From NCBI GenBank assembly GCA_965221125.1, contig CBDCRW010000007.1, positions 224,001 through 288,000 of the forward strand: a stretch of DNA of 64,000 nt, read 5' to 3'. Origin of the DNA: Alphaproteobacteria bacterium. GTDB lineage: Bacteria > Pseudomonadota > Alphaproteobacteria > UBA828. The position numbers and the translations under genes were made by a program. A model generated the notes under the pieces. That model was given only the letters and a program-made list of their open reading frames with translations. It was not told the DNA's origin and searched no databases. The number at the start of each line of letters is the position of its first letter. The first letter of the stretch is position 1. Positions 3,861 to 59,356 of the stretch are shown piece by piece.

Positions 3861-5075
3861 CTACCCCATCGCGGCGCGCAGCCGGCGGTCGATCGCGTCC
3901 AGAAAATCCTTGGAGTTGAGCCAGCCCTGGTCGGGACCGATCAGGATGGCGAGGTCCTTGGTCATCTCGCCGGCTTCCACGCACTCGATGCAGCAGCGCT
4001 CCAGCGTGTCGGCGAAGTCGGCGAGCGCCTGGTTGCCGTCGCGCCGGCCTCTGTGCTTGAGCCCGCGCGTCCAGGCGAAGATCGAGGCGATCGGGTTGGT
4101 CGAGGTCTCCTCGCCCCGCTGGTAGGCGCGGTAGTGCCGCGTCACCGTGCCGTGCGCGGCCTCGGCTTCGACCGTCTTGCCGTCGGGCGACATCAGCACC
4201 GAGGTCATGAGGCCGAGCGAGCCGAAGCCCTGCGCCACGGTGTCGGACTGCACGTCGCCGTCGTAGTTCTTGCAGGCCCAGATGAAGGCGCCCTCCCACT
4301 TGAGCGCGGCGGCCACCATGTCGTCGATCAGCCGGTGCTCGTAGCTCAGGCCGGCGTCGTCGAAGCGGTCCCTGAACTCGGCCTCGTAGATCTCCTCGAA
4401 CAGGTCCTTGAAGCGCCCGTCGTAGAACTTGAGGATCGTGTTCTTGGTCGACATGTAGACCGGCCAGCCGCGCTCCAGTCCGTAGTTCATGCAGGAGCGG
4501 GCGAAGTCGCGGATCGAATCGTCCAGGTTGTACATGGCGAGCGCGACGCCGCCGCCGGGGAAGTCGAACACCTCCCGCTCGATGGTCTCGCCGCCGTTCG
4601 CGGGCTCGAAGCGCACCGTGAGCTTGCCCTTGCCGGGCACGACGAAGTCGGTGGCGCGGTACTGGTCGCCGAAGGCGTGGCGGCCGATCACGATGGGGTG
4701 CTCCCAGCCCGGCACCAGGCGCGGCACGTTGCGGCAGATGATGGGCTCGCGGAACACCGTGCCGCCCAGGATGTTGCGGATCGTGCCGTTGGGCGAGCGC
4801 CACATCTTCTTGAGGCCGAACTCCTCGACGCGGGCTTCGTCCGGCGTGATGGTTGCGCACTTCACGCCGACGCCGATTTCCCTGATCGCCTCGGCGCTGT
4901 CGACCGTGACCCGATCGTCGGTGGCGTCGCGATGCTCGACGCCGAGGTCGTAGTAGACGAGGTCGATATCCAGGTAGGGCAGGATCAGCTGGTCCTTGAT
5001 CCACGCCCAGATGATTCGCGTCATCTCGTCGCCGTCGATCTCGACGACGGGGTTGGCGACCTTGATTTTCGCCAT
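3861..5075 (-). CDS. icd: NADP-dependent isocitrate dehydrogenase
   Basis: [67 protein letters not shown]; ATG at 5075. Confidence 0.97.
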
Positions 5076-46114: not shown

Positions 46115-46167
46115 GGAATATATTGACATATTCCAGTATGTCACGGAGCTGCGTGTCTCTGTGGTTT
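46115..46167 (+). promoter_or_regulatory. Promoter/operator, possibly oriT, upstream of the RHH genes
   Basis: TTGACA at 46123; inverted repeats GGAATAT/ATATTCC and TGACATA/TATGTCA; followed by TGCGTGTCTCTGTGGT. Confidence 0.4.
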
Positions 46168-46193
46168 CGGGGCCCTACGGACGGCTGCCCGCG

Positions 46194-46556
46194 ATGAGGG
46201 AGGATGCCGGCGGACGCCGCCAGCGCGCGGTCATGGCCACCGATGCGGAGTGGGAGCGGATCGGCCGGGCGGCTGCGGCGAGCGGCATGGACCTGTCGCG
46301 CTTCGTGATCCATCGCGCTCTTGATCGGGAGCCTCTGCCGCCGGAGGTCCTGCGCCGGGCGGTGCGCGAGATGCTGGTGCTGTCCAGACTGGAGGAAAGG
46401 CGGCTGCGCGGGGCGGGCGCCGGTGCGGCCTGGGAGGACGCCTGCGACGCGGTGGACGAATGGATCGACCGCGAGGGCATGCTCGACCGGCTCACCGATC
46501 CAGGTGCTGCGAACCGCTGGAAGGCGGCGGGGTCGACCGGGGAGGACCGATCGTGA
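46194..46556 (+). CDS. Ribbon-helix-helix protein (MobC/NikA-like) 1
   Basis: RRQRAVMATDAEWERIGRAAAASGMDLSRFVIHRAL. Confidence 0.7.
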   Translation: MREDAGGRRQRAVMATDAEWERIGRAAAASGMDLSRFVIHRALDREPLPPEVLRRAVREMLVLSRLEERRLRGAGAGAAWEDACDAVDEWIDREGMLDRLTDPGAANRWKAAGSTGEDRS

Positions 46557-46864
46557 CTGAGGAGCCTGCGCGGCCCCTAAGACGTCAGCGGAGCCTGCAC
46601 TGCAAGCCGGCTGAACAGGCGATGATCCGGGAGCGCGCTGAGGCGGCGGACAAGACCGTGTCGCGCTATATTCTGGAGCTCGCGCTCGCCGACGATCCGG
46701 ACCGCCATCCCCTGGTGCTGACGGAAGCGGAACAGGTGGAGCAGAGGGACGGGGTACGGGAGTTGCAGGCATTCGTAAGGGCTCTGCGGCGCGAGCTTCC
46801 GGGGGGCAGCGGGCTCAGCCTGCTGAGCGCGATCTCCGTCCTTGCGCGGGAGCGTTCGTCGTGA
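46553..46864 (+). CDS. Ribbon-helix-helix protein (MobC/NikA-like) 2
   Basis: RRQRSLHCKPAEQAMIRERAEAADKTVSRYILELAL; GTGA overlap. Confidence 0.7.
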   Translation: MTEEPARPLRRQRSLHCKPAEQAMIRERAEAADKTVSRYILELALADDPDRHPLVLTEAEQVEQRDGVRELQAFVRALRRELPGGSGLSLLSAISVLARERSS

Positions 46865-47433
46865 GACGGACGCGGCGTCGGCGGAAGGCGCGCCGGCCGA
46901 GCCGGCACATCTCGATCTCGGCGACGGACGCGGATTGGGAGGTGGTTCGCAGCAACGCGGAGCGGCGCGGCCTGTCGATCGCGCGCTACCTGCTGGAGCT
47001 GGTGGAACGGGACAGTGAGGAAGAGGACGCAGGTCCCGAACTGGCGCTTGCCAAGGAAGAGCAGCGTGAGCAGCTGGAGGCGCTGCAGGAGGTCCGCGCG
47101 CTGATGCTGGAGGCGGAGGCGGAGGATGCAGGTCCGCTTGTACGCGATATGCAGGAGCGGATCGCGGTGATGTTCGCAGCCTGGGCGTCTGCGATGGCCG
47201 GGTCGGGCCGCTCGGAGGAGCTGCGGCTGGCGCTCGCCTCGGTGCTTGGCGAGGAGCGGGCGCGTATCGCTGCGGCCTCGGTCGTACCAACCTCGGTCGT
47301 ACCAACCTCGGTTGTGCCGGCCTCGGCCGCGGTCTCGACCGCGGTCTCGACCGAGGCGCCGGCCGCGCAGCAGGAGGTCGCGCCTCAGGCCCCTGACGGG
47401 GAGACGGACCCCGGCCAGGACCGCCTGCTGTGA
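46861..47433 (+). CDS. Ribbon-helix-helix protein (MobC/NikA-like) 3
   Basis: RHISISATDADWEVVRSNAERRGLSIARYLLELV; GTGA overlap. Confidence 0.7.
   Translation: MRRTRRRRKARRPSRHISISATDADWEVVRSNAERRGLSIARYLLELVERDSEEEDAGPELALAKEEQREQLEALQEVRALMLEAEAEDAGPLVRDMQERIAVMFAAWASAMAGSGRSEELRLALASVLGEERARIAAASVVPTSVVPTSVVPASAAVSTAVSTEAPAAQQEVAPQAPDGETDPGQDRLL
47276..47353 (+). repeat. In-frame minisatellites: 15-bp x3 (SVVPT) and 12-bp x2 (AVST)
   Basis: cctcggtcgtaccaa cctcggtcgtaccaa cctcggttgtgccgg; ccgcggtctcga x2. Confidence 0.85.
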
Positions 47434-47665
47434 GGCGCTCACCATGTGCGCCGCCGGCATGAACGAGGTGCGCGAGGCCGACCGAACTAGGAGAAAGATG
47501 GCGTGATGGCGCGATGCGGCGGCAGAAGAAAAGGGGAACGCCACAGGCCTGCGAAGGGGAGACGGATTCCCGCCGGGAAAGGTGTCCGTGAGACGGCCTC
47601 CATGTGCGCCGCTGGCATGAATGAGGTGCACGAGGTGGACCACACGAGGGGACAATTGGCGTGAC
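47351..47665 (+). repeat. Diverged tandem duplication, 158-bp period
   Basis: ggggagacgga at 47398/47556; ccatgtgcgccgc(c/t)ggcatgaa(c/t)gaggtgc at 47442/47600; tggcgtga ending 47506/47664. Confidence 0.8.
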
Positions 47666-48037
47666 TGCTGTTGTTTTCCGGTCTAGCCGGATAGAAGCAC
47701 GGGTTTTTTTCTCACTTTGATTGGTTGGTGGATTTCCCGGGATGGTGGCCGAGTGCGGGAAGGACGCTGCCTGCGGCATTTTTTTGATCCTCAGCAGAAT
47801 CCTCATTGCTGTTGAAGCTGTGGAGCGGTGGGCGCGAGATCGGCGAGTGTGGTCAGGCGGTGGGCAAGCGCCAGCTTGTCCACGGGCTGTCCACACGGTC
47901 CGCAGGACGCCGATCGGTCCGCAGGACGCGTCCACGGCTCCACAGCTTGGCGGCGGCGGGGAGCGTCCGTAATCTTGGCCTCTCACTGAACGACAAAGAG
48001 AGGCCCGGGGGACGGAACTCCCGCCGGGCCAGGGCCG

Positions 48038-48673
48038 GTGCAGCTTCGCTACGAAACGGGGCTCACCAGCGAGGAATACGTTAAGACCGAGGCGTGGCGC
48101 GACGCAAGGCTTGAGCGCTGCCCGAATCACCCGCACGGCGGATGTTCTGTGGCAAGCCACGGCACCTACGAGCGGAAGACCCCGCCCGGCGCAAGGGTTC
48201 CTCGCTGGTATTGCCGTGAGAGCCATACGACCATCGGCCTGCTGGCCGACTGTCTGGCGGCGCGGCTGCCGGGCACGCTCGATGCGCTGGAAGCGGTTGT
48301 TGTCGTGGCGGAGGAGGCCGGCAGCCTGGAGGAGGCAGCGGACGAGGTGCGCTGCCCCGAGGACGAGGACGCCATCGAGCTTCCCGGCGCCGTGCGTTGG
48401 ATCCGCCGCAGGCTGAAGCTTGTGCACGACGCGCTTGTGCGCGTCATCGGCCTGATCCCCGACCTGCTCGCGGGCTGCGCGCCCACCATGAGCGCGGTGC
48501 GCGAGCGTCTGAAGAGCGACAGCGCGTTGATGGAACTGCGCGGCCTGGTCGCCGGGCAGCTCCGGACGCTACCCGCGCCTCTGGGCTTCCAACCCCACGG
48601 CATCGACGTGGGGAATCGCAAACCGCAGTTCCAACAACGGGCGGGGCCGGACCCGCCGCCGGAGAGTTCGTAG
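48038..48673 (+). CDS. Zn-finger-like transposon accessory protein
   Basis: CPNHPHGGC..HGTYERK..RWYC..HTTIGLL.DCL, followed by a helical/HTH-like region. Confidence 0.7.
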   Translation: MQLRYETGLTSEEYVKTEAWRDARLERCPNHPHGGCSVASHGTYERKTPPGARVPRWYCRESHTTIGLLADCLAARLPGTLDALEAVVVVAEEAGSLEEAADEVRCPEDEDAIELPGAVRWIRRRLKLVHDALVRVIGLIPDLLAGCAPTMSAVRERLKSDSALMELRGLVAGQLRTLPAPLGFQPHGIDVGNRKPQFQQRAGPDPPPESS

Positions 48674-48718
48674 CGTGACGATCCCGGGGCCAGGGAGTCC
48701 CTGAACGAGGATCGCACC

Positions 48719-50047
48719 ATGAACAGCTCAGACGACGACCTTCGCCAACAGATCGCGCTCTTCCGATACGACGTCATCGCCGATCTGGTGCATCTGCCCG
48801 TGGGTGCACCGGGTGCCGGCGCGATGATGCGCGCCAAAGCCGAGAAGACCTACACGATCCCCGGAACCACCAGGACCCGGGTCGCCGCCGAGACCATGCG
48901 GCGCTGGATCAAGGACTACCGCTACGGCGGCTTCGACGCGCTCTACCCCAAGCCCCGCACCGACCGGGGGAAGCCCCGGCGGCTGCCGCCCGAGGTCGCC
49001 GAGCGCCTCATCGCGCTGAAGACCGAGAACGACGCATTGTCGGTTCGCGCCATCATCCAGAAGGTCAAGGAGGAGGGTATCGACCACCCGCTCGCCTCGT
49101 CCACCGTGCACCGCCTCTTCAGCCGCGAGGGCCTGTTCGACAAGAAGCCGCCCGACGGGGCGGATCGCCGCCGCTTCGCCTTCCGGCATGCCGGCGAGAT
49201 GTGGATGAGCGACGTCATGCACGGACCCAAGGTCCGGCACGGCCGAACCCGGCGCAAGACCTACCTGATCGCCTTCATCGACGACGCCACCCGCGTCATC
49301 CCGTTCGCCGCCTTCGCCATGGCGGAGAACACTGCGGCGTTCCTGCCGGTGTTCAAGGACGCGCTGATCCGGCGCGGCCTCCCGGCCCGCTTGTACGTCG
49401 ACAACGGAAGCGCCTACCGCTCCCGTCATCTCTCCCTGGTCTGCGCCAGGCTCGGCGTTGCGTTGATTCACGCAAGGGCGTTCCAGCCAGCGGGAAAGGG
49501 TAAGATCGAGCGCTTCTTCCGCACCCTCCGGGCCGGCTGGCTCCGCCACCTCGGCGATGACGTCGACAGCCTGGAGGCGCTCAACCGCAGCCTCTGGGCC
49601 TGGATCGAGGGGGAGTATCACAACAGCCCGCATCGTGGCCTCGACGAGGGGCGCACCCCGCTTGAGCAGTGGGCGCTGGCCTCGGCCGGCGTGCGCTATC
49701 CCGACGCCACCATGGACCTCGACGATCTGTTCCTCTTCGAGGCCAGGCGCCGTGTCTACAAGGACCGCACCGTTAGTCTGAACGGCCGCGTCTACGAGGT
49801 CGACGCCCTCCTGGTGGGTCAGAACGTCATCCTGCGCTACGACCCGGCCGCGCCGCCCTCGCGCCCTCTCGACGTGGTCCATGACGGCAAGCCGGCCGGC
49901 AAGGCCAGCCCTCTCGACGCCTACGCCAATACCGCCGTCAGGCGCACCTACCCGGCCAGGGAGATCGAGGCCGAAGATCCGGCGCCCGAGCCTCCGCCCT
50001 CGCCGCTGGCCATGCGCAACCTCAAGGACAAGAAGGAGGACGAGTGA
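48719..50047 (+). CDS. DDE transposase/integrase (rve core, N-terminal HTH, Mu-transposase-like C-terminus)
   Basis: WMSD (D), YVDNGSAY (D), GKGKIERFFRT (E), YHNSPHRGL, RRVYKDRTVSLNGRVYEV. Confidence 0.93.
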   Translation: MNSSDDDLRQQIALFRYDVIADLVHLPVGAPGAGAMMRAKAEKTYTIPGTTRTRVAAETMRRWIKDYRYGGFDALYPKPRTDRGKPRRLPPEVAERLIALKTENDALSVRAIIQKVKEEGIDHPLASSTVHRLFSREGLFDKKPPDGADRRRFAFRHAGEMWMSDVMHGPKVRHGRTRRKTYLIAFIDDATRVIPFAAFAMAENTAAFLPVFKDALIRRGLPARLYVDNGSAYRSRHLSLVCARLGVALIHARAFQPAGKGKIERFFRTLRAGWLRHLGDDVDSLEALNRSLWAWIEGEYHNSPHRGLDEGRTPLEQWALASAGVRYPDATMDLDDLFLFEARRRVYKDRTVSLNGRVYEVDALLVGQNVILRYDPAAPPSRPLDVVHDGKPAGKASPLDAYANTAVRRTYPAREIEAEDPAPEPPPSPLAMRNLKDKKEDE

Positions 50048-50847
50048 TGTACCTGCGCCACTTCGCCTTCACCCGCCTGCCCTTCGAGACCCCGGCAGAG
50101 ACCGACGAGCTGTTCGAGTCCAACGCGCGCCGCGAGGCCGAGGCCAGGCTCGGCCACCTCATCGACCTGCGCGGCATCGGCCTGCTCACCGGCGAGGTGG
50201 GCTCCGGCAAGACCACCGTGTGCCGGCATCTGACCGCGCAGCTTCATCCAGGCCTCTACCGGGTCCACTACGTCTCGCTGACCACGGGCAACGTGCTCGA
50301 CATGTACAAGGCGATCGCGTGGGAGATCGGCCTGCCCATCGAGCGCTCCCGCGCCTCGGCCTATCAGGCCATCCGAAACGAGATCTCCCGCCTCGTCACC
50401 GAGGCCAAGCAGCTGCCGGTCCTCGTCATCGACGAGGCCCATCATCTGCGCAACGACGTCCTTGAGGACCTGCGCCTGCTCACCAACTTCGCCATGGATG
50501 CAGAGCAGCGCCTGTGCCTCGTCCTCGTCGGTCTGACCGAGCTCAGGCGCCGCCTGGCCATGGCCATGCACGAATCCCTCAGCCAGCGCCTCGTCGTCCG
50601 CCACCACCTGAGCGGTCTCGACCGCGACGAGGTCGACGCTTACATCAAGCACCGCCTCAGGCTCGCGGGATGCGAACTGCCGCTGTTCGAAGAGCCCGCC
50701 GTCGAGGCCCTGTTCCAGGGCGCGCGCGGCCTGCCGCGCCAGATCAACCGCATCGCCCACTACGCGCTCTCCGCCGCCGCTCTCGACGAGGCGAGGACCG
50801 TCAGTGCCGACCACCTGCAGCACGCGCTCGAGGAACTGCGGCCATGA
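50044..50847 (+). CDS. ExeA-type AAA+ ATPase (transposase helper)
   Basis: YLRHFAFTRLPF, GEVGSGKTT, VLVIDEAHHL, LVLVG, GLPRQIN. Confidence 0.92.
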   Translation: MMYLRHFAFTRLPFETPAETDELFESNARREAEARLGHLIDLRGIGLLTGEVGSGKTTVCRHLTAQLHPGLYRVHYVSLTTGNVLDMYKAIAWEIGLPIERSRASAYQAIRNEISRLVTEAKQLPVLVIDEAHHLRNDVLEDLRLLTNFAMDAEQRLCLVLVGLTELRRRLAMAMHESLSQRLVVRHHLSGLDRDEVDAYIKHRLRLAGCELPLFEEPAVEALFQGARGLPRQINRIAHYALSAAALDEARTVSADHLQHALEELRP

Positions 50848-51884
50848 CCGGCTTCCCGACCCGCGCCCCGATCGAGCTGGAGGAGCGGCCGCGCGAGCAG
50901 CAATGGCTGGTGGACACGCTATGGGGCGAGCAGGCCGTCGGCATCGTCGGCGGCGAGCCGAAGTGCGGCAAGTCCATCCTGGCGCTGGACCTCGCGGTCG
51001 CAGTCGCCGCCGGCGTCCCATGCCTGCGGCACTTCGCCCCGGCCCGGCCTGGCCCGGTCCTGCTGTTCGCCGCAGAAGACGCCGGCCACCTCGTGCGCAA
51101 GCGCCTGCAGGGGATCGCCCGCGCCGCAGGCGCCCGCTTCGAGACCCTCGACATCGCCGTCATCGACGTGCCCACACTGCGCCTCGACCATCTCGACGAC
51201 CGCCGCCGCCTGCAGCAGACCGTGGAGCGCATCGCACCGCGCCTCGTGGTCCTCGACCCCCTGGTCCGCCTGCACGGCGTGGACGAGAACACGGTTGCGG
51301 ACGTCGCCCCGATCCTCGGCTTCCTGCGCGACCTGCAACGCCGCTTCGAGACCGCCGTCCTCCTCGTCCACCACGCCCGCAAGAGCGGGGCCACGAGGCC
51401 GGGGCAGGCCCTGCGGGGCAGCAGTGAGCTGCACGCCTGGGGGGACTCGAACCTCTACCTGCGCCGCCGGGACCGGCAGACCCTCATGACCGTCGAGCAT
51501 CGCGCCGCACGCGGTCTCGACGACATCGAGATCGAGCTCAAGGAAGACGGAGAGGAGCCCTCCTTCCGGCTGCGCCAGCCGCCCACGGCCGGCGGCGGGG
51601 CGCCTCAGCCCGAAACACCCGAATGCCGCGTTCTCAAGGCGCTCGCCGACGCCGGGGCGCCGCTCTCGCAACGCCAGATCCGGGAACGCGCCGCGACCCG
51701 GCACAAGACCGTCGGCGTAATCTTGCAAAAGCTCGTCCAGGAGGGTCGCGTCGCGCGCAACGCCGAGGGCGGCTACAGCGTCGTCGCAGGCGCAGCGGAC
51801 AAGCGGGCGGCGGCCGCCGCCGCCAACGGCAGCAGTCGGCCGCAGGCCCCGCGGTTCCCGGAGCCCGGTTCCGCCAACGCCTAG
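50844..51884 (+). CDS. RepA-like (AAA_25, RecA-fold) helicase/ATPase with C-terminal winged HTH
   Basis: QWLVDTLW, GGEPKCGKS, LFAAED, LVVLDPL, VDEN, LVHHARK, RGSSELHAWGD; C-terminal LSQRQIRE..LQKLVQEG; ATGA overlap. Confidence 0.85.
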   Translation: MTGFPTRAPIELEERPREQQWLVDTLWGEQAVGIVGGEPKCGKSILALDLAVAVAAGVPCLRHFAPARPGPVLLFAAEDAGHLVRKRLQGIARAAGARFETLDIAVIDVPTLRLDHLDDRRRLQQTVERIAPRLVVLDPLVRLHGVDENTVADVAPILGFLRDLQRRFETAVLLVHHARKSGATRPGQALRGSSELHAWGDSNLYLRRRDRQTLMTVEHRAARGLDDIEIELKEDGEEPSFRLRQPPTAGGGAPQPETPECRVLKALADAGAPLSQRQIRERAATRHKTVGVILQKLVQEGRVARNAEGGYSVVAGAADKRAAAAAANGSSRPQAPRFPEPGSANA

Positions 51885-52232
51885 GGGTTCGAGCCGGAAC
51901 CGCCGTCGGGAACCACCCTTCCCCAACGGTCCGGAAGGCGCTGCGCCTCCACCGGGATACTACGTCAGGTGAGCGGCCAGTCCGTGGCCGGAAGCTTGCT
52001 TCAGGCCATGGCAGCACTTCGTCGTGTGGACGGTGGCGAGTCACCCGAAGGGCCGAAGCGAAGCGCAGGAGCGGCGCAGCCGCTTGACGCGCCGACGGCC
52101 GCGCGACACCTCGTCAGCTCTCCTCAAGCACCAGTCCAAACCTCAATCAGACAGCGACCCCGGACCGCCCGCAGAGACCATGAGCTCCTACGCTTCGATC
52201 CGGAAAAGACCGAGCAATCTGGGAAATCAGGG

Positions 52233-53685
52233 GGTTGTGTCCCCAGACGTGGTGTAGGAGCTCCCGCTACCCCCGGTAGCTGTGGGTAACCGGCTTGGCG
52301 CCGCGACCGCCCTCGAGTCTGGTGGCGCCAAGCCGGTTATCCACAGCGGGGTGGCCATCGCGGTTCCGGTTTAGGGTTTGGGTGAATCCGAATCGACCCG
52401 AGCCTAAGGAGAACCACGATGACCGATGACAAGCTTACCCTGCGGACGCTGTTGGAGAAGAGCTCTGACGCCGATCTGCTGCGTGAGATGATCGCCTTCT
52501 CTGCGCAGCGCCTTATGGAGCTGGAAGTCGAGGGCCTGACCGGCGCCGAGCATGGCGCGCGGACGCCGGAGCGGATCAACCAGCGCAACGGCTACCGCGA
52601 TCGGCCTTGGGAGACCCGGGCCGGCACGGTCGACCTGAAGATTCCGAAGCTCAGGAAGGGGAGCTACTTCCCCGGCTTCCTGGAGCCCCGACGGACGGCG
52701 GAGAAGGCGCTCACGGCGGTGATCCAGGAGGCCTACATCCAGGGGGTATCGACCCGCTCGGTCGACGAACTGGTTCAGGCCATGGGCATGAGCGGGATAT
52801 CGAAGAGCCAGGTCTCGCGCCTTTGCGGGGAGATAGACGACAAGATCCGCAGCTTCCTCGACCGCCCGCTCGAAGGCGACTGGCCCTATCTCTGGCTGGA
52901 TGCGACTTACGTGAAGGTGCGCGAGGCCGGGCGCATCGTCCCGGTCGCGGTCACCGTGGCCGTCGCGGTCAACGACCAGGGCCGGCGCGAGATCCTCGGC
53001 ATGGCGATCGGCGCCTCCGAGGCCGAGACCTTCTGGACCGAGTTCCTGCGCTCGCTGACCAGGCGCGGCCTGCGCGGCGTGCAGCTGGTGATCTCCGACG
53101 ACCACAAGGGCCTGAAGGCCGCCACCACCCGGATCCTCGGCGCCACCTGGCAGAGATGCCGCGTCCACTTCATGCGCAACCTGCTGGCCCATGCCGGCAA
53201 GCAGGGCCGGCGCGTCGTCTCCGCCTTCGTCGCCACCGCCTTCGCCCAGGACGATGCCGAGGCCGCTGCCGCCCAGTGGCGCCTGATCGCCGACCAGCTC
53301 AGGCCCAAGGCCTCCAAGCTGGCGGCCCTCATGGACGAGGCCCAGCACGACGTCCTCGCCTACATGAGCTTCCCCAAGGAGCACCGGGTCAAGCTTCACT
53401 CGACCAACCCGCTCGAACGCGTCAACGGCGAGATCAAGCGACGCACCAACGTCGTCGGCATCTTCCCCAACGAGGACGCCATCACCCGCCTCGTCGGCGC
53501 CGTGCTGCTCGAGCAGAACGACGAATGGACCGTCGGAAGGAGGTACATGACGCTGGAATCGATCGCTCCCCTGAGCGACAATCCCACGATCAAGCTGTCC
53601 GCTGTGGCAGCCTGAATAACCCGGCCCTACCCGCCGGATGCCGCGTAAAGCGCGACGCTCTTACACCACTCCTCGGGACACGATC
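52233..53685 (+). mobile_element. IS256 family insertion sequence, 8-bp target duplication AATCAGGG
   Basis: 28-bp IRs GGTTGTGTCCCCAGACGTGGTGTAGGAG / rc GATCGTGTCCCGAGGAGTGGTGTAAGAG; AATCAGGG at 52225-52232 and 53686-53693. Confidence 0.95.
52419..53615 (+). CDS. IS256 family (Mutator-type) transposase
   Basis: [60 protein letters not shown]. Confidence 0.97.
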
Positions 53686-53737
53686 AATCAGGGCAGCGAT
53701 CACGTCAAATAATCTGGGAGATTCGGCGTCAAATAAC

Positions 53738-54409
53738 GTGCGAAACAACACTGCAGAGGGCGACGGCAAGAGCGGGCGGACGGGCCAGCCGGACTTGCTG
53801 GCAAGCCTGCCGCCGGAAGGGCCACCCGCTTCGCCACCAGCGCCCGGTATCGATCCTGCCGTGGTCGAGGAATTGCTCACCGAAGTGCGAGAACTGCGGG
53901 AACAGGTGGCCGGACTGAAGGAAGCGGTAGCCGCCGCGCGGCCCGCGCCAGGGCCTGAGGCGGTACCTGAGGTGCTGACGCAGGAGGCTCTCGAGGCCTG
54001 GGGCGACAACTTCTTGGCCCGCGTGGCCGAGATCGCGCGAGCCGAGGCCGCGCCAAGGGGCGACGCGGCGGCGACCGTCGCAGCCCATGCCGCCAAGATC
54101 GAGGAAGCGGCGGCGAAGGCGGCAGCGGCGGCAGACCGTGTCGACCGGGGTATGGCGACTACCGCGGACCGGGTCGCGGCCGAGATCGAGGGGGCCGTGA
54201 CCAGAATCGAAAAGGGCCTTGCGGCGACGCGCTCCCAGGTCATCGAGCATTCCGGTTCGATCCGTGGGCTTCTCTATGACGTCCTCACGCAAACGGCTGG
54301 ACCGAAGTTCGGCCTGAAGACGCTTCTTGTGGGCCTGATCGTCCTGATCTTCGGCATGCTGATCGAGAGCCGCGCGCACTTGCTCTACAAATGGCTGTGG
54401 TCCGGTTGA
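53738..54409 (+). CDS. Hypothetical coiled-coil protein with C-terminal TM helix (5' end possibly disrupted)
   Basis: LLTEVRELREQVAGLKE coiled coil; Ala-rich helices; LLVGLIVLIFGMLI TM; frame is open back to the IS256 end. Confidence 0.6.
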   Translation: MRNNTAEGDGKSGRTGQPDLLASLPPEGPPASPPAPGIDPAVVEELLTEVRELREQVAGLKEAVAAARPAPGPEAVPEVLTQEALEAWGDNFLARVAEIARAEAAPRGDAAATVAAHAAKIEEAAAKAAAAADRVDRGMATTADRVAAEIEGAVTRIEKGLAATRSQVIEHSGSIRGLLYDVLTQTAGPKFGLKTLLVGLIVLIFGMLIESRAHLLYKWLWSG

Positions 54410-54496
54410 GCCGGCGGCGTCCCGCCTCTCCGCTCCGGCGTCCCGTCTCCCTGCGTCCGCCGCGCACCGACGCGCCCATGCGTGGGGCCTGAGCCG

Positions 54497-57400
54497 ATGG
54501 TCGCCACGGTGGTGGAGCTCCGCTCGTCCGCCATGGCGGTGACCTATTACGAGCGCGACGGCTACTACGCAAAGAACGACCCCGAGCACCGCCAGGCGAG
54601 CTTCTGGTACGGGGACGCGGCGAAGGCGCTGGGGCTCAAGGCCCATGTGCGTCCCTCGCGCTTCGAATCGGTGCTGTCGGGATACGTGCCGGGGACGGAC
54701 CTGCGTCTCGGCCGGATGCGCGAGGGGGAGCACGATCACCGGCCCGGCTGGGACATCACCCTGTCGGCTCCGAAGTCGGTATCGCTGGAGGCGCTGGTGA
54801 TGGGAGACCGCCGGGTGATCCGGGCTCACGACGAGGCGGTGCGCGCGACGCTGGCGTTCGTGGAGGCGGAGCTTCTTCAGACCCGGGGCTGGGACCCCGC
54901 GACCAGGCGCCGTCCCCGGGTGCAGGCGGAGGGCATGGTGGTGGCGGGGTTCCGTCATCTCGCGAGCCGCGACCAGGACCCGCAGCTGCACACTCACTGC
55001 GTGCTGGCCAACATGACGCGGAATGCCTCAGGCGAGTGGCGGAGCGTGGAGCCGACGAAGATCCGCCGCAGCGAGAAGCTGATCGGAGCATTTTACCGGA
55101 ACGAGCTCGCGCTGCGTCTCCAGGCTTTGGGTATGGCCGTCTCGCCGACCCTGGTGGGACGGGTGCCGGGGTTCGAGCTCGCGGGCTACGACCGCGCCTT
55201 CCTGGACGCGTTCTCGGGCAGGCGCCGCGAGATTCTCGCGTACCTGGAACGCCAGGACCTGTCCTATACGGCGAAGCACACGCAGATGGCGGCGCTGCAC
55301 ACGCGCCGGCGCAAGGAGGACAAGGGCCTTGCGGACCTGGTGCCGGAATGGCGCGCGCGGGCGCGGGCGCTGGGTCTGGTCCGGGAGAAGACGGCCCTCA
55401 GGCCGCCCCGCCCGCTCGACCCGGTGACCGGCGAGCGGGTGGGGTTGCCGCACGTGCCCCCACCCGACCTGCCGGCCAACGAGATCCGCAGCCTGAAGCG
55501 TGCGCCGGCGCTGCCGAAGCTGCCGGAGCAGCCCAGCAATGACATTGCCGAACGCGCGGGCACGCGTCCCGAGCCCTCCCGCTCACCGGCGCCGGCGGAG
55601 CTGTCGCAGGAGCCCGAGCGGGGCGTCCTGGAGGCGGTGGCGCGGGCTGTGGCGCACGTTGCTGAGAGGCGCACCGCGATCCCGGAGGCCGAGATCCGGG
55701 CGGTGGCGCTGGGCCATGCGCCGGGGCGCTACACCCTGGCCGAGGTCGACGGGGCGATCGCACGGCTGGTGTCCGGCGGCGAGCTGATCGAGGCGGAACG
55801 CCGGGGCATGGACCGGGCCTTCGTCACCGACCGGGCGGTGAAGGCCGAACGCCAGGTGCTGGCGTCGATGCGGGCGGGGCGCTCACGGGGAATGGCGCTG
55901 GCCGGCGCGGATGCCGTCGAGGTGCGGCTCGACGCGTCGCGTCTCACCAAGGGCCAGAGGGAGGCGGTCCGCACGGTGCTGCTGTCGAACGATCTCACGG
56001 TCGGCGTGCAGGGCCACGCCGGGAGCGGCAAGACCACCATGCTGAGGGAGGTGAAGGCGCTTCTCGGGGACAGGACGATACAGGGCCTTGCGCCCTCTGC
56101 CGCCGCCGCACGGGTTCTCGCCAGGGAGGCGGACATCCCCTCACGGACGCTGCAGCACTTCCTGACCCGCTTCAACGATCTCTCGGACCCGGCGCGGCTG
56201 GCGCGGGGCCGGGAGGAGTACGGGGGCGCGGTGCTGGCGGTGGACGAGGCCTCGATGATCGACACCGTGCGCATGGAGGCGCTGCTGCGCATCGCGCGCG
56301 ATCTGAATGTGGCGCGTGTCGCGCTGGTGGGCGACACGGCGCAGCTGAGGGGGGTGGATGCTGGAGAACCCTTCCGTCTGCTGCAGAAGGCGGGCATGGC
56401 GACGGCGACCATGGACGAGGTGCTGCGCCAGCGCGACCCGGCGCTGCGCGCGACGGTAGGCCGCGTCAGGGAGGGGGAGCCGGGCGCGGCGATCGCGGCG
56501 CTGGGCAACCGGGTGCGCGAAGTGCGGCGCGAGGAGCTCGGCATCGAGGCGGCGCGGCGCTGGCTCGCGCTGGCGCCTGTGCAGCGGGCGGACACCCTGA
56601 TCCTCGCGCCGACGCACGCCATTCGCCGGCAGGCGAACGAGGCGGCGCGCGAAGGGCTCGCGGAGGAAGGGGTCTTGCGGGGCCGCACGCTCGCCGTCGA
56701 CCGCCTGGTAAATCGGCGGCTCACCCGCGCGCTGGCCTCCGACATACGGAGCTACGAGCCCGGCGACACTATAGTGTTCCACCGCGACGTCTTCGGCTGC
56801 CGCGTCAACGACGTCTGCACCGTGATGGGCCACGACGGCGGCAGGGTCGTACTGGCGCATGCGGACGGCGAGCGCCGGTTCCGGCCCTCGGGCAATGCGG
56901 CGCGCTATCTGGGCCTCTACGACACCGAGCGGATCGAGCTGCGCGCCGGCGACCAAATCCGCTGGACGCGCAACCGCAAGGCCCCGCCCGCCCGCGGCAG
57001 GCATCCCCAGGCACCGGACCTGGTCAATGGCGGCGAGGCGAAGATCGTGGAGATCGGCTATGAGCGGGTGCGCTTCCGCGAGGGCGGCCGGGAGTTCGGC
57101 CTCTCGCTTACCGACCCACAGCTGCGCCATCTCGATCATGCGTACTGCTCCACCGTGCATTCTGCGCAGGGCCGGACGGCGCGGGCGGCGATCGCGGTGC
57201 TGGACGCGGGCGGCTGGGTCGACCGCGAGCTGTTCCATGTCGAGCTCAGCCGGGTCTCGGAAGAGTTCCTGCTGCTGACCGACGACCGCGACGCGCTCAT
57301 CGAGAGCATGGCATACGACCGGAGCGAGGACGGTGCGCTGGAGGCGCTGGGGATCGACCTTTCCGAGCCCCCCGTGGTGGACCCCGAAGAGTTCACGGCG

Positions 57401-59356
57401 CTGGCGGCGGACTGGCGGGCACTTCTGCGGAAGAGCGAGGAGACGAACACGATTCCATTTTTCCTGTCGGGCTACCGGGACACGATGGCCCAGGCTGCGG
57501 CGCTCGCGCAGATCGAGGATCTGCCGGAGGACATGCGCCGCCTCACCGACACCATGCTGGCGAAACACGAGGAGCATCTTGCGCATGACCGGGAAGTGCA
57601 GGGCCTCGTCGAGGGCATCCGGGACCATTGGCGGCGCTGGCCGGAGTTGGGCTGGGCGGCCTCCGCGCAGGGCGTGCCTGTAGAGAAACTTCCCGCACAC
57701 GCTGCCTGGCGCGAGGAAGGGGCGGCGCTCCTGGAGGCGGGCCGCAGCCTGGTGGAGGCGGAGGGCGGGGCGGCCCACCGCGTGGCGGCACACCATGAGG
57801 TGGTACACCGCCAGGTGGTACACCGCCAGGTGGTACACCGCGATGTGGCCCACCACCTCCATGCCATGCCGGGCGGGCGCGCCGGTCTGGAAGACGCCGT
57901 CGTTATGCTTGAACGCACGCGGCTCCTCGACGATGCCGGGCGCTTCGAACGCGCGTGGCACGCGCTTCGCGAGCGAGCGACGGAGAGCGTCGTCCCGGAG
58001 ATTTACGCGCCGGGCTACCGGCAGGTGGCGGCGCTTGGCCAAAAGCTCGTGCTCGCCGATCAGGGGCTCGATGAGCGCGCGCAGCGCGCGGTGGCGGAAT
58101 GGCGGGAGATCGGTACGGCGCAGAGGGCGCTGGCGGAAGAGGTGCGCGCCCTGCCCGGCCGTATCGCGGCGTGGCTGTCAGCGGACCTGCCGCAGGACGA
58201 GCCCGGCGGGCTCGATCCTGACCATCCCGTGCGGCAGTCCTGGCGCGGGGAAGGCGCCAGGATGCAAGCCATGGCCGGGGACATGCTGCGCCCCGAAGAC
58301 GCCCACGCGCCCTACCTGGACGCCGAACCGGGCGGGCGCGAGGCTGTCCGGCAGGCGGCCGAAGAGGTCGCCGACGCGCTCCGGCACGACGGCTACCGGG
58401 CATTCGGGTGGCTGACGAAGGAGGTGAACCGGCAGGCGCAAGAAACCCGGACCGAAGCGTTCCACGTGCCGCGCTACGGCGAGCTGGTCGCACAGGCCGA
58501 GGCGCTCTCCGTGCAGGCGGCGCTGCCGGCGCGCACGCAGGAGGTCGTCGCATCATGGCTCGGCTACCATGCCAGGTGCGAACCGCTCTGCCGGCAGATC
58601 CGGGAATGGCCCGCACTGCTGGACGCGCTCACGGCGGACTGCCCCGAACGTCCCGCGAGGCTCGACGCCCTGACTGACTGGCGGCAGCGGGCGGAGCCCC
58701 TGCTCGCCGAGGCCCGAACGATGATGGCGGAGGACGCCCCTCACGCGCCCCATCTGGACGCCATTCCGGGCGAGCGCAAGGCGCTGGCCGAGGGAACGGG
58801 CCGCCTCGACCGCGCGCTGATCGAGGTCGAGGCGCGGGAGACGGTCGTGCTGTCATCGGTCGTACAGAAGTGGGCTAACGAGACGGGCGGGATCGGCTTC
58901 GACAGCCGCGCCTATGACGCGCTGATGGAGCGCGCGCGTTCTCTCGATGCCAGGCCGCATCTGCCGGAGGATTTGCGCGGCACGGTCGACGGCCTTCTCG
59001 CCAGGGACGAACGCTGGGCGCTCGACAGGGATCGGGTCCAAGCATTCCTCGTGCGGGCCGCGGAGTTCGAGCGCGCGCGGAACGCTCTGACGCAGATGGA
59101 CGTCACGACCAACTCGTTCGAGGAGCGTCGACAGGCCCGGCAGGACTGCGAGCGGAAAGAGAAGGAGGTTCTCGACGAAGCGGTGGCAATCAGGAAGAAC
59201 ATGCCGCAACACGAGCTCGCCGCTCATCTGGCCGCCGCCGGCGCAGGCTCGGACACGGTCCGTGAGCGCGAAGAGGAGATCCGCAACAGGATCGCCCGGG
59301 AACAGGAAAGGCAGGCCGCCCTGCGAATGAGCCGCGACCGGGGAATGTCGATGTAG
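54497..59356 (+). CDS. MOB_F conjugative relaxase-helicase (TrwC/TraI-like) with long repetitive C-terminal extension
   Basis: TYYERDGYY tyrosines, DITLSAPKSVS, RAHDEAV, FRHLASRDQDPQLHTH, FSGRR; helicase GHAGSGKTT, VDEASM, VGDTAQL, LRQ, HAYCSTVHSAQGRT; terminal SRDRGMSM. Confidence 0.95.
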   Translation: MVATVVELRSSAMAVTYYERDGYYAKNDPEHRQASFWYGDAAKALGLKAHVRPSRFESVLSGYVPGTDLRLGRMREGEHDHRPGWDITLSAPKSVSLEALVMGDRRVIRAHDEAVRATLAFVEAELLQTRGWDPATRRRPRVQAEGMVVAGFRHLASRDQDPQLHTHCVLANMTRNASGEWRSVEPTKIRRSEKLIGAFYRNELALRLQALGMAVSPTLVGRVPGFELAGYDRAFLDAFSGRRREILAYLERQDLSYTAKHTQMAALHTRRRKEDKGLADLVPEWRARARALGLVREKTALRPPRPLDPVTGERVGLPHVPPPDLPANEIRSLKRAPALPKLPEQPSNDIAERAGTRPEPSRSPAPAELSQEPERGVLEAVARAVAHVAERRTAIPEAEIRAVALGHAPGRYTLAEVDGAIARLVSGGELIEAERRGMDRAFVTDRAVKAERQVLASMRAGRSRGMALAGADAVEVRLDASRLTKGQREAVRTVLLSNDLTVGVQGHAGSGKTTMLREVKALLGDRTIQGLAPSAAAARVLAREADIPSRTLQHFLTRFNDLSDPARLARGREEYGGAVLAVDEASMIDTVRMEALLRIARDLNVARVALVGDTAQLRGVDAGEPFRLLQKAGMATATMDEVLRQRDPALRATVGRVREGEPGAAIAALGNRVREVRREELGIEAARRWLALAPVQRADTLILAPTHAIRRQANEAAREGLAEEGVLRGRTLAVDRLVNRRLTRALASDIRSYEPGDTIVFHRDVFGCRVNDVCTVMGHDGGRVVLAHADGERRFRPSGNAARYLGLYDTERIELRAGDQIRWTRNRKAPPARGRHPQAPDLVNGGEAKIVEIGYERVRFREGGREFGLSLTDPQLRHLDHAYCSTVHSAQGRTARAAIAVLDAGGWVDRELFHVELSRVSEEFLLLTDDRDALIESMAYDRSEDGALEALGIDLSEPPVVDPEEFTALAADWRALLRKSEETNTIPFFLSGYRDTMAQAAALAQIEDLPEDMRRLTDTMLAKHEEHLAHDREVQGLVEGIRDHWRRWPELGWAASAQGVPVEKLPAHAAWREEGAALLEAGRSLVEAEGGAAHRVAAHHEVVHRQVVHRQVVHRDVAHHLHAMPGGRAGLEDAVVMLERTRLLDDAGRFERAWHALRERATESVVPEIYAPGYRQVAALGQKLVLADQGLDERAQRAVAEWREIGTAQRALAEEVRALPGRIAAWLSADLPQDEPGGLDPDHPVRQSWRGEGARMQAMAGDMLRPEDAHAPYLDAEPGGREAVRQAAEEVADALRHDGYRAFGWLTKEVNRQAQETRTEAFHVPRYGELVAQAEALSVQAALPARTQEVVASWLGYHARCEPLCRQIREWPALLDALTADCPERPARLDALTDWRQRAEPLLAEARTMMAEDAPHAPHLDAIPGERKALAEGTGRLDRALIEVEARETVVLSSVVQKWANETGGIGFDSRAYDALMERARSLDARPHLPEDLRGTVDGLLARDERWALDRDRVQAFLVRAAEFERARNALTQMDVTTNSFEERRQARQDCERKEKEVLDEAVAIRKNMPQHELAAHLAAAGAGSDTVREREEEIRNRIAREQERQAALRMSRDRGMSM
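57798..57841 (+). repeat. 15-bp tandem repeat x3 (VVHRQ) in the relaxase
   Basis: aggtggtacaccgcc aggtggtacaccgcc aggtggtacaccgc. Confidence 0.9.

Follow-up and report, generated by a model that had tools for sequence, protein, structure and literature searches.

Small Mu-type transposons with a RepA-like helicase gene or a primase gene in the same position: a possible means of starting their own replication

The window analysed here, a stretch of 64,000 nt from an alphaproteobacterial genome assembly (GCA_965221125.1, contig CBDCRW010000007.1), holds a small Mu-type transposon whose fourth and last gene encodes an AAA_25 ATPase resembling RepA, the hexameric helicase of plasmid RSF1010. Several divergent lineages of small Mu-type transposons carry a plasmid-type helicase-like or primase-like gene at this same position, maintained by selection and exchanged as a cassette. 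It is possible, although the balance of probability lies against the proposal taken as a whole, that these elements belong to a large undescribed group of Mu-type (TnsB plus TnsC) transposons with a replication starter of their own (a RepA-like helicase, a Toprim or a RepB'-type primase) in a fixed slot before the right end. Such elements would not have to wait for the host restart primosome to replicate either the strand-transfer intermediate or a copied-out circle, and their modules would be cassettes interchangeable between distant families.

Bacterial replicative DNA transposons are thought to borrow host machinery for the restart of replication at the transposition intermediate, Mu being the textbook case. 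If the proteins encoded at this position act on that intermediate, the elements described below would provide the first examples, compact and tractable, of DDE transposons that bring a replisome-loading step with them. They would also open to experiment the handover from transpososome to replisome, the bursts to 20-35 identical copies, and the widening of host range by modules.

The RepA-like protein and its gene

An annotation made earlier from the sequence of the window (the original prediction) listed four co-oriented open reading frames (ORFs), the last three overlapping by 4 nt. Positions of the ORFs, given throughout in window coordinates with the first letter of the stretch as 1, and Pfam matches agree with it in arrangement and domains (Table 1), and the 4-nt overlaps lie at 50044/50047 (transposase and AAA+ gene) and 50844/50847 (AAA+ gene and RepA-like gene). 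The description of the last product as a RepA-type ATPase with a C-terminal winged helix-turn-helix also held, the winged helix being MarR-like. A single-sequence comparison matches the protein to RSF1010 RepA (1g8y) with E 9.6e-10, and a profile built from 74 homologues does so with 4.6e-18. In register with 1g8y are Walker A (GKS), AED, LDxxxR (Walker B), EN, HHxxK (the His sensor) and RGSS (the Arg finger). Foldseek searches with an AF2 model (pLDDT 89.6) find DnaB and RepA, 1g8y with a TM score of 0.72. The protein keeps every catalytic motif of the hexameric helicase, and hexamer formation and unwinding activity are predicted.

The gene lies within the mobile unit in all 20 copies of the element in the genome. 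It is subject to purifying selection and has diverged together with the core genes: against five relatives (L012, L013, L023, L025 and L015) its dN/dS is 0.08-0.31, compared with 0.17-0.29 for the transposase at similar dS. The family to which the protein belongs is large, with 37,302 cluster representatives at E ≤1e-3, and the closest 120 clusters (at least 69% identity) come nearly all from metagenome assemblies, many from contigs of a few kb. Among 400 genomes of the same class there is one partial match of 49% identity, the others being at 36% or less. The transposons described here offer a context and, if the role proposed below holds, a likely role for very many unannotated "AAA family ATPase" genes; at E ≤1e-30 there are 478 matching clusters (50% identity), mostly from metagenomes.

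A conserved block of about 150 nt follows the gene. It folds with -47.9 kcal/mol, with compensatory changes in 4 pairs, and no Rfam family corresponds to it. Its covariance model (R1) matches only 7 loci of this gene lineage among 85 sources, finding only its own source sequences and their twins; the block is lineage-specific and not a general feature, although within the gene lineage it also occurs in L071, an element of another transposon family.

Content of the slot in related elements

Relatives of the element were surveyed at 79 loci in species-representative genomes, with transposase identities from 98 down to 34%. Between the AAA+ gene and the array of sites at the right end lies a variable slot, whose content was tallied by hand coding at 56 loci; at the other 23 (23 assemblies) the contig ends too soon for a judgement. 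The slot holds a RepA-like (AAA_25) gene at 8 loci (6 assemblies), a Toprim/DUF3991 gene at 14 (9 assemblies), a RepB-primase gene at 1 (1 assembly) and nothing comparable at 33 (21 assemblies). All slot genes of at least 260 aa that can be named with Pfam are of helicase or primase type, from three unrelated families.

The 8 loci with a RepA-like gene all have transposase identities of at least 78% to that of the window. The gene is absent from the equally close L014 (79%) and L029/L030 (76%), and from all more distant loci. On a quick IQ-TREE of transposase plus AAA+ protein (54 rows) it is limited to a subclade of 10 rows (support 99), 4 of which are without it, so that either one gain followed by losses or two gains must be supposed. 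Because only 8 of the 56 judged loci carry it, the RepA-like gene is in this lineage an acquired accessory, and not the coupled core gene for which the original prediction took it. The further claim that it is no cargo fared better, the 4-nt coupling, the signs of purifying selection and its presence in every genome copy all agreeing with it.

Homology between the L014 element and that of the window ends exactly at the stop codon of the AAA+ gene and returns in the last 95 bp, which marks the stretch between the stop codon and the right end as an exchange slot.

Primase genes at the same position

Elements of 4.0-4.4 kb in nine assemblies carry, directly after the AAA+ gene, a gene for a protein of 270-310 aa with DUF3991 and Toprim_2 domains. 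They occur in Bryobacterales, Paracoccaceae, Arenicellales, Verrucomicrobiae and others, several have verified 5-bp duplications, and their rows form a basal grade of the main clade in the quick IQ-TREE. In a Desulfocicer contig (L088) the slot is occupied by a RepB_primase protein. Homologues of this primase were found in 19 of 301 genomes of the class, with an AAA_22 gene directly upstream at 13 of 25 loci and two further loci looking alike. One genome has 8 identical copies, and identities of the AAA+ proteins range from 94% to 23%.

A RecA-fold helicase, a Toprim protein and a RepB'-type primase, three unrelated families, are recruited to the same place in Mu-type transposons. Their common denominator is a role in starting DNA replication.

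A second transposon family and exchange of the gene

Distant relatives about 48% identical to the RepA-like protein of the window were used, by alignment, to pick 80 loci from metagenomes. With probes from the window, an AAA_22 gene lies directly upstream at 72 of the 80, the remainder having 620 bp or less of room. When the probes come from L130, itself one of the 80, the AAA+ gene is recovered at 77 (the other 3 are without upstream room) and the transposase at 66, and a Cys-rich, helix-turn-helix (HTH) first gene at 41 of the 42 loci with room for it. All four genes of L130 overlap or abut, as in the window. Identities to the window proteins are 23-30% for the transposases and 25-33% for the AAA+ proteins, as against 47-57% for the RepA-like proteins. 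These loci represent a second transposon family, distant from that of the window but with its four genes in the same order. Its transposase was met in 3 of 400 genomes sampled from the phylum, on short contigs only.

By FastTree, transposon-borne RepA-like proteins form one group (87 rows, support 94) separate from 17 other AAA_25 proteins, and the six proteins of the window lineage form one clade. The RepA-like clade lives almost exclusively behind AAA+ genes of transposons (77 of the 80 metagenome loci). A further sign of the fixed adjacency of the two genes is given by natural fusions, or deletion chimeras, of AAA_22 with AAA_25 (proteins P0004, 597 aa, and P0255, 405 aa, and locus L054).

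Both families are present in one alphaproteobacterial metagenome-assembled genome (MAG; G1075, loci L071 and L025/L026), with at least 35 copies of the second family and at least 3 of the window family. In a Spirochaetia MAG, a four-gene element of the second family (L032:9074-13344) lies about 470 bp from an opposite-facing three-gene element of the window family, and a repeat of about 360 bp, present in 14 copies, abuts it.

The two kinds of element in G1075 bear closely related helicase-like genes. The second-family element L071 (4,421 bp, ends TGAGAG...GCTCA; of five copies, three have 5-bp and two 4-bp duplications) has a transposase 26-29% and an AAA+ protein 28% identical to those of the window, and a RepA-like protein 79.6% identical. 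Nucleotide homology to the window family covers only the RepA-like gene and about 230 bp after it. In another genome, three copies share a right boundary about 150 bp beyond the RepA-like gene. As a cassette, the RepA-like gene has passed between families of transposons with transposases only about 26% identical.

The same material bears on whether the gene is a passenger with no part in transposition, either left over from the replication module of a plasmid or satellite or serving to interfere with the replication of competing plasmids and phages, and lodged in a permissive cargo slot. A passenger would suit a slot that is a hot spot of exchange, as in L014, would explain why most relatives do without the gene, and would be in keeping with the frequency of AAA_25 domains in phage primase-helicases (PHROG). 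Yet the transposon-borne proteins are a clade of their own, nearly always encoded behind an AAA+ gene and often with 4-nt overlaps, and the nameable slot genes are without exception of helicase or primase type in three unrelated families. Selection is as strong as on the transposase, no PADLOC defence model matches the protein, and tblastn of the protein against PLSDB (72,556 plasmids) gave no match at 1e-5. A passenger is, on these grounds, quite unlikely.

Core genes and placement among known families

Three genes make up the core of the element, those of the DUF6431-like zinc protein, the DDE transposase and the MuB/TnsC-like AAA+ ATPase. The trio stays syntenic down to about 46% transposase identity among the 79 loci. 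Elements with these three genes alone are 3.1-3.6 kb long, with 300-500 bp from the AAA+ stop codon to the right end, as determined by comparison of copies and searches for ends. Plasmid relatives with transposases about 38-40% identical, on Cupriavidus pBB2, a Streptomyces linear plasmid and Geobacillus pGS18, consist of a DUF6431 gene, a transposase and an AAA ATPase, and none of these three elements has an AAA_25 gene. The Pfam DUF6431 model (PF20020) gives no hit to the zinc protein even at E 10. A profile of the zinc protein (14 homologues) aligns with the DUF6431 protein of pGS18 at an hhalign probability of 95.6% (E 1.3e-8), and its gene occupies the same position as the DUF6431 genes of the plasmid relatives.

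The transposase has the Pfam domains PF00665 (rve, 1.2e-10) and PF09299 (Mu-transpos_C, 1.7e-07). It matches PDB structures of TnsB (5.2e-07), the PADLOC TnsB model, and PHROG 310, a family of transposases from transposable phages (3.2e-49). Its AAA+ partner matches AAA_22 (Pfam, 5.7e-27), MuB (PDB 8xvb, 1e-3) and PHROG 296, "DNA transposition protein" (1.4e-29), and its best NCBIfam match is an ExeA-like PEP-CTERM ATPase. No IstB family is among the 17 Pfam families listed at E ≤0.01, and no TnsA or TniQ domain was found in the four ORFs with Pfam or NCBIfam. Apart from the transposase of an inserted IS256-family element, no recombinase or resolvase ORF lies within 47669-53750.

Membership of two insertion sequence (IS) families was considered and rejected. 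For IS21 the ATPase is of the wrong kind (AAA_22), and the NCBIfam model scores 43.1 bits on the transposase, under its cut-off of 160. For IS481 the score of 201.9 bits also falls below the cut-off (224), and the element is set apart by the Mu C-terminal domain of its transposase, by its helper ATPase and by its two other genes. The IS3 and ISNCY models are likewise under their cut-offs.

Within the Mu/Tn552/Tn7 superfamily, the element has the simple "TnsBC" form without TnsA, TniQ or resolvase; it fits the "TnsBC elements" because the matches are of TnsB and MuB type, the IS models stay under their cut-offs, and no TnsA, TniQ or resolvase is encoded. The undescribed class suggested by the original prediction therefore gives way to known TnsB+TnsC, Mu-like transposons. 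The original prediction did not recognise the arrangement as a named family, and neither a catalogue entry nor a publication describing it was found, in a search whose scope stops short of the supplementary lists of Benler et al. 2021 and the 2024 preprint (10.1101/2024.11.13.623437), where cargo of this sort could appear.

Termini, copies and target sites

A search of the window's own genome shows the stretch many times at 100% identity. With 47669-52232 as query, blastn gives 18 full-length matches and 2 copies cut by another element, 20 in all; 17 are uninterrupted and 3 are split by the same IS. In the 17 uninterrupted copies the identity extends 57 bp further to the right, which makes the intact element 4,621 bp long, with termini TGTTGTTTTC...GAAACAACA (TGTTG...CAACA). 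The window copy spans 47669-53750, since the IS256-family element splits it 57 bp before its end and the true right end is thus at 53750.

The ends had been predicted at 47666 and 52216. The left end was 3 nt off; position 52216 lies inside the element, among inner repeats of transposase sites that resemble the terminus. That the right end lies beyond the helicase-like gene, and not before 50844, is borne out.

Sites resembling the termini were sought with a weight matrix, derived from the end sequences of 15 other elements with the TGTTG tip left out, at a threshold score of at least 6; it replaced an earlier matrix that included the tip and mainly re-found termini. In the window element, terminal-like 17-mers lie at offsets 6 and 40 from the left end and 6, 30, 64 and 83 from the right; the arrays at the two ends consist of sites of roughly 20 bp. 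Eight of the 10 hits at or above threshold face inward and lie less than 130 bp from an end, and the layout is identical in L016, L050 and L025.

Target duplications were analysed for 18 copies. Thirteen have perfect 5-bp duplications, two a 4-bp match (including the window copy, CTGC), one agrees at 4 of 5 positions, and two are inverted copies with exchanged flanks. This last pair (G000 C4:672017-676580 and C4:716887-721450) lies 40 kb apart with the flanking 5-mers swapped (cgggg/ccctc), so that the segment between the copies must have been inverted, either by homologous recombination or by one-step replicative inversion, the two being indistinguishable here. Within 40 bp of the 18 insertion sites no target motif was found beyond a weak preference, C at position 2 of the duplication in 11 of 13.

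The transposon has recently multiplied to 20 identical copies. For one insertion (L003:1502-6129, the G000 C6 copy), contigs of the probable source sample (run X1) contain the empty target site. At this joint 4,626 bp are passed over, 5 letters are ambiguous, and the depth is 54.5 against about 62 for the flanks. The same joint occurs in a sponge metagenome, runs X1 and X8 both showing the uninterrupted site. The insertion is therefore polymorphic and missing from much of the sequenced population, which fits recent activity. Close relatives of the whole element, helicase-like gene included, are present in marine and sponge metagenomes. RNA contigs of run X18 touch the element at its two ends and in a small part of the transposase gene and nowhere else, too little to speak for expression.

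A possible part in replication

Because it lies inside the mobile unit, bears the marks of purifying selection, belongs to a clade dedicated to transposons and has passed between families as a cassette, the RepA-like gene is not random cargo; in this lineage it is neither core nor random cargo. A role can be sketched on the model of Mu. A transposase without a TnsA-type nuclease would join only the 3' ends of the element to the target, and strand transfer would leave forked junctions, as in Mu. The element's helicase, or the primase in sister lineages, may then load at the forks and start DNA synthesis through the element, and copying would thereby depend less on the host restart machinery of PriA, DnaB and DnaG. 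The reading preferred here, tentatively, at somewhat less than an even chance, is that replication of the transposition intermediate is started by a helicase or primase that the element itself encodes. A replication step of the element's own had been part of the original prediction; the Toprim/DUF3991 or RepB'-type primases in the slot of sister lineages speak for it, while the mechanism itself is put forward conditionally. Copy number, the absence of TnsA and the one copy pair with swapped flanks are hints of a replicative route. The helicase would be a helper and not a requirement, since three-gene relatives also multiply.

A number of observations weigh against this reading. Most relatives are without the RepA-like gene, which is evidently dispensable, and three-gene relatives reach 3 to 6 or more identical copies per genome. 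The metagenome loci were chosen by their RepA-like protein and are no proof that the second family always carries it; L198, a locus selected by its transposase, has 484 bp after the AAA+ gene with no RepA-like match and seems to be without the gene. Thirteen of the 18 copies own a direct duplication, and the single pair with swapped flanks is equally explained by homologous recombination. As no resolvase is encoded, simple insertions made by the replicative route would need host recombination, and no cointegrate was seen in the assembly or among the contig joints listed.

Some of these observations would be accounted for by a copy-out, paste-in route, in which the transposase makes a single-strand bridge between the ends. 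Replication driven by the element's helicase or primase would then set free a double-stranded circle, which integrates as a simple insertion. IS481 and IS3 families use this route, and their NCBIfam models, though under the cut-offs, score best on the transposase. The simple insertions with direct 5-bp duplications, the absence of an encoded resolvase, and a slot gene of a kind that fits a need for replication would all be expected. Against it stand three hallmarks of the Mu/Tn7 group: the transposase has a Mu-transpos_C domain, its partner is MuB/TnsC-like, and the ends carry arrays of several sites. Nor was a circle or tandem junction, joining right end to left end, seen in the assembly or among the joints listed for the Logan contigs, a weak objection as contigs drop rare forms; the excised circle envisaged in the original prediction is likewise not seen there. 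Copy-out is given a low probability.

The RepA-like protein may instead bind DNA and regulate transposition at the expense of ATP, by choosing targets, conferring target immunity or acting as a repressor, in place of TniQ, TnsD or TnsE. Its winged helix and the 150-nt block that travels with the gene, a candidate binding site, could indicate a regulatory role and count against a replicative one. TnsBC-type elements without TniQ carry varied accessory genes, for which the main text of the 2024 preprint (10.1101/2024.11.13.623437) proposes targeting or maintenance roles. A target chooser is hard to reconcile with 18 insertion sites that share no conserved motif, and a cassette that works with partners only 26-29% identical speaks against a tight fit between proteins. 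The catalytic motifs of a hexameric helicase are all kept, and targeting would not explain unrelated primase families in the same slot elsewhere. We regard a regulator as unlikely, if not strongly so, and the start of replication by a helicase or primase of the element as the better account of the slot.

Features of the window copy and its surroundings

The features of the window copy are collected in Table 1. The IS256-family insertion made an 8-bp duplication, AATCAGGG, at 52225-52232 and 53686-53693. Fourteen copies of this IS are found in the genome, 3 of them inside copies of the transposon, although the transposon makes up about 2% of the genome. Just inside its left end, at 52279-52347, lies a near-perfect 24-nt inverted repeat (96%), to which Rfam gave only two microRNA-like matches, both sub-threshold.

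Table 1. Features of the transposon copy in the window and of the IS element inserted in it
Feature	Position	Strand	Basis
Target duplication, left copy (CTGC; 4 bp here, 5 bp in most copies)	47665..47668	.	flanks ...actgc, element, ctgca...
Left end: terminus TGTTGTTTTC and two transposase-site-like 17-mers, element positions 6-22 and 40-56	47669..47724	+	copy comparison, weight matrix (+6, +40)
Zinc-ribbon protein, 211 aa, Cys/His-rich, putative divergent DUF6431; invariant C28, C36, H41, C59	48038..48673	+	alignment of homologues
DDE transposase, 442 aa, TnsB/MuA-like: HTH_32, rve, Mu-transpos_C	48719..50047	+	Pfam
AAA+ ATPase, 267 aa, MuB/TnsC-like, AAA_22 ("ExeA-type"), weak TniB match	50044..50847	+	Pfam
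RepA(RSF1010)/DnaB-fold ATPase (AAA_25), 346 aa, C-terminal MarR-like winged helix; accessory slot gene	50844..51884	+	Pfam, fold, profile
Conserved block of about 150 nt with hairpin potential, 3' of the helicase-like gene, travelling with it between transposon families	51938..52091	+	alignments
Inner right-end transposase-site-like repeats, offsets 64 and 83 from the terminus, reaching the IS insertion point	52191..52232	-	weight matrix, element positions 4558 and 4539
Inserted IS256-family element, 1,453 bp, not the transposon's; transposase gene 52419-53615	52233..53685	+	Pfam Transposase_mut, 7.3e-122
Final 57 bp of the transposon: two terminal transposase-site-like repeats and terminus ...GAAACAACA	53694..53750	-	copy comparison, weight matrix
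Target duplication, right copy (CTGC)	53751..53754	.	copy flanks

Upstream of the transposon, a direct repeat of 126 nt (47381-47506 and 47539-47664; 75% identity, spacing 158 nt) stops 4 nt before the left end, and a third related 30-mer lies at 48476-48505, within the zinc-protein gene. Two NikA-like ORFs lie upstream (46161-47433), and downstream there is a gene for a TrwC-relaxase/AAA_30 protein of 1,624 aa (54482-59356). The window copy sits in a conjugative-transfer (relaxosome) region, as reported for basal TnsBC elements.

Comparison with known systems

The 2024 preprint (10.1101/2024.11.13.623437) describes "TnsBC elements" as having TnsB and TnsC without TnsA or TniQ. Their transposition is assumed to be replicative in the manner of Mu; the ends are TGT/ACA, the duplications are 5 bp long, and conjugation genes often lie close by. 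The window element shares with them a TnsB-type transposase followed by an AAA+ regulator, the TGT/ACA ends, the 5-bp duplication and the neighbourhood of conjugation genes, and the Streptomyces plasmid relatives of its transposase (about 38-39% identity) are of the TnsBC kind. The elements of the preprint carry serine recombinases, telomere genes, sbcCD or type I-E CRISPR, whereas the window element is without a resolvase; a RepA-like ATPase, Toprim, RepB' primase or DUF6431 gene is not mentioned in the passages of that source considered here.

With Mu the element has in common a DDE transposase with the Mu C-terminal domain, an AAA+ target activator, multi-site TG..CA ends and the 5-bp duplication. 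Mu copies itself by replicating the strand-transfer product, and for the start of this replication it depends on the host proteins ClpX, PriA, DnaB and DnaG. The window element, in contrast, encodes a helicase-like protein of its own (primase-like in its relatives), has only 4.6 kb and carries no phage genes.

Tn552, Tn5053/Tn402 and Tn7-like elements have a homologous transposase (rve plus Mu-transpos_C) and AAA+ partner. The window transposase is matched by 408 Staphylococcus plasmid records, which we take to be Tn552. Unlike these families, the window element has no resolvase or res (Tn552, Tn5053), TniQ (Tn5053, Tn7) or TnsA (Tn7), and it has a DUF6431-like protein and a replication-type slot gene. 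Subterminal arrays of sites have been described for the same families in the main text of Benler et al. 2021 (PMC8649781).

As for RSF1010 (IncQ), the slot protein has the motifs and fold of its RepA, and in another lineage the slot holds a protein of the RepB_primase family. The contexts differ, a plasmid in the one case and a transposon in the other; the window protein has an additional C-terminal winged helix, and a RepC-like initiator or iterons are not seen in the window element. Casposons, Polintons and Helitrons encode part of their own DNA-synthesis machinery. These self-synthesising elements and Helitrons use Cas1, retroviral-type integrases or HUH nucleases together with a polymerase of their own or a Pif1-type helicase, whereas in the window element and its relatives the transposition machinery is DDE/AAA+ of Mu type, accompanied by a helicase of RepA type or by a primase.

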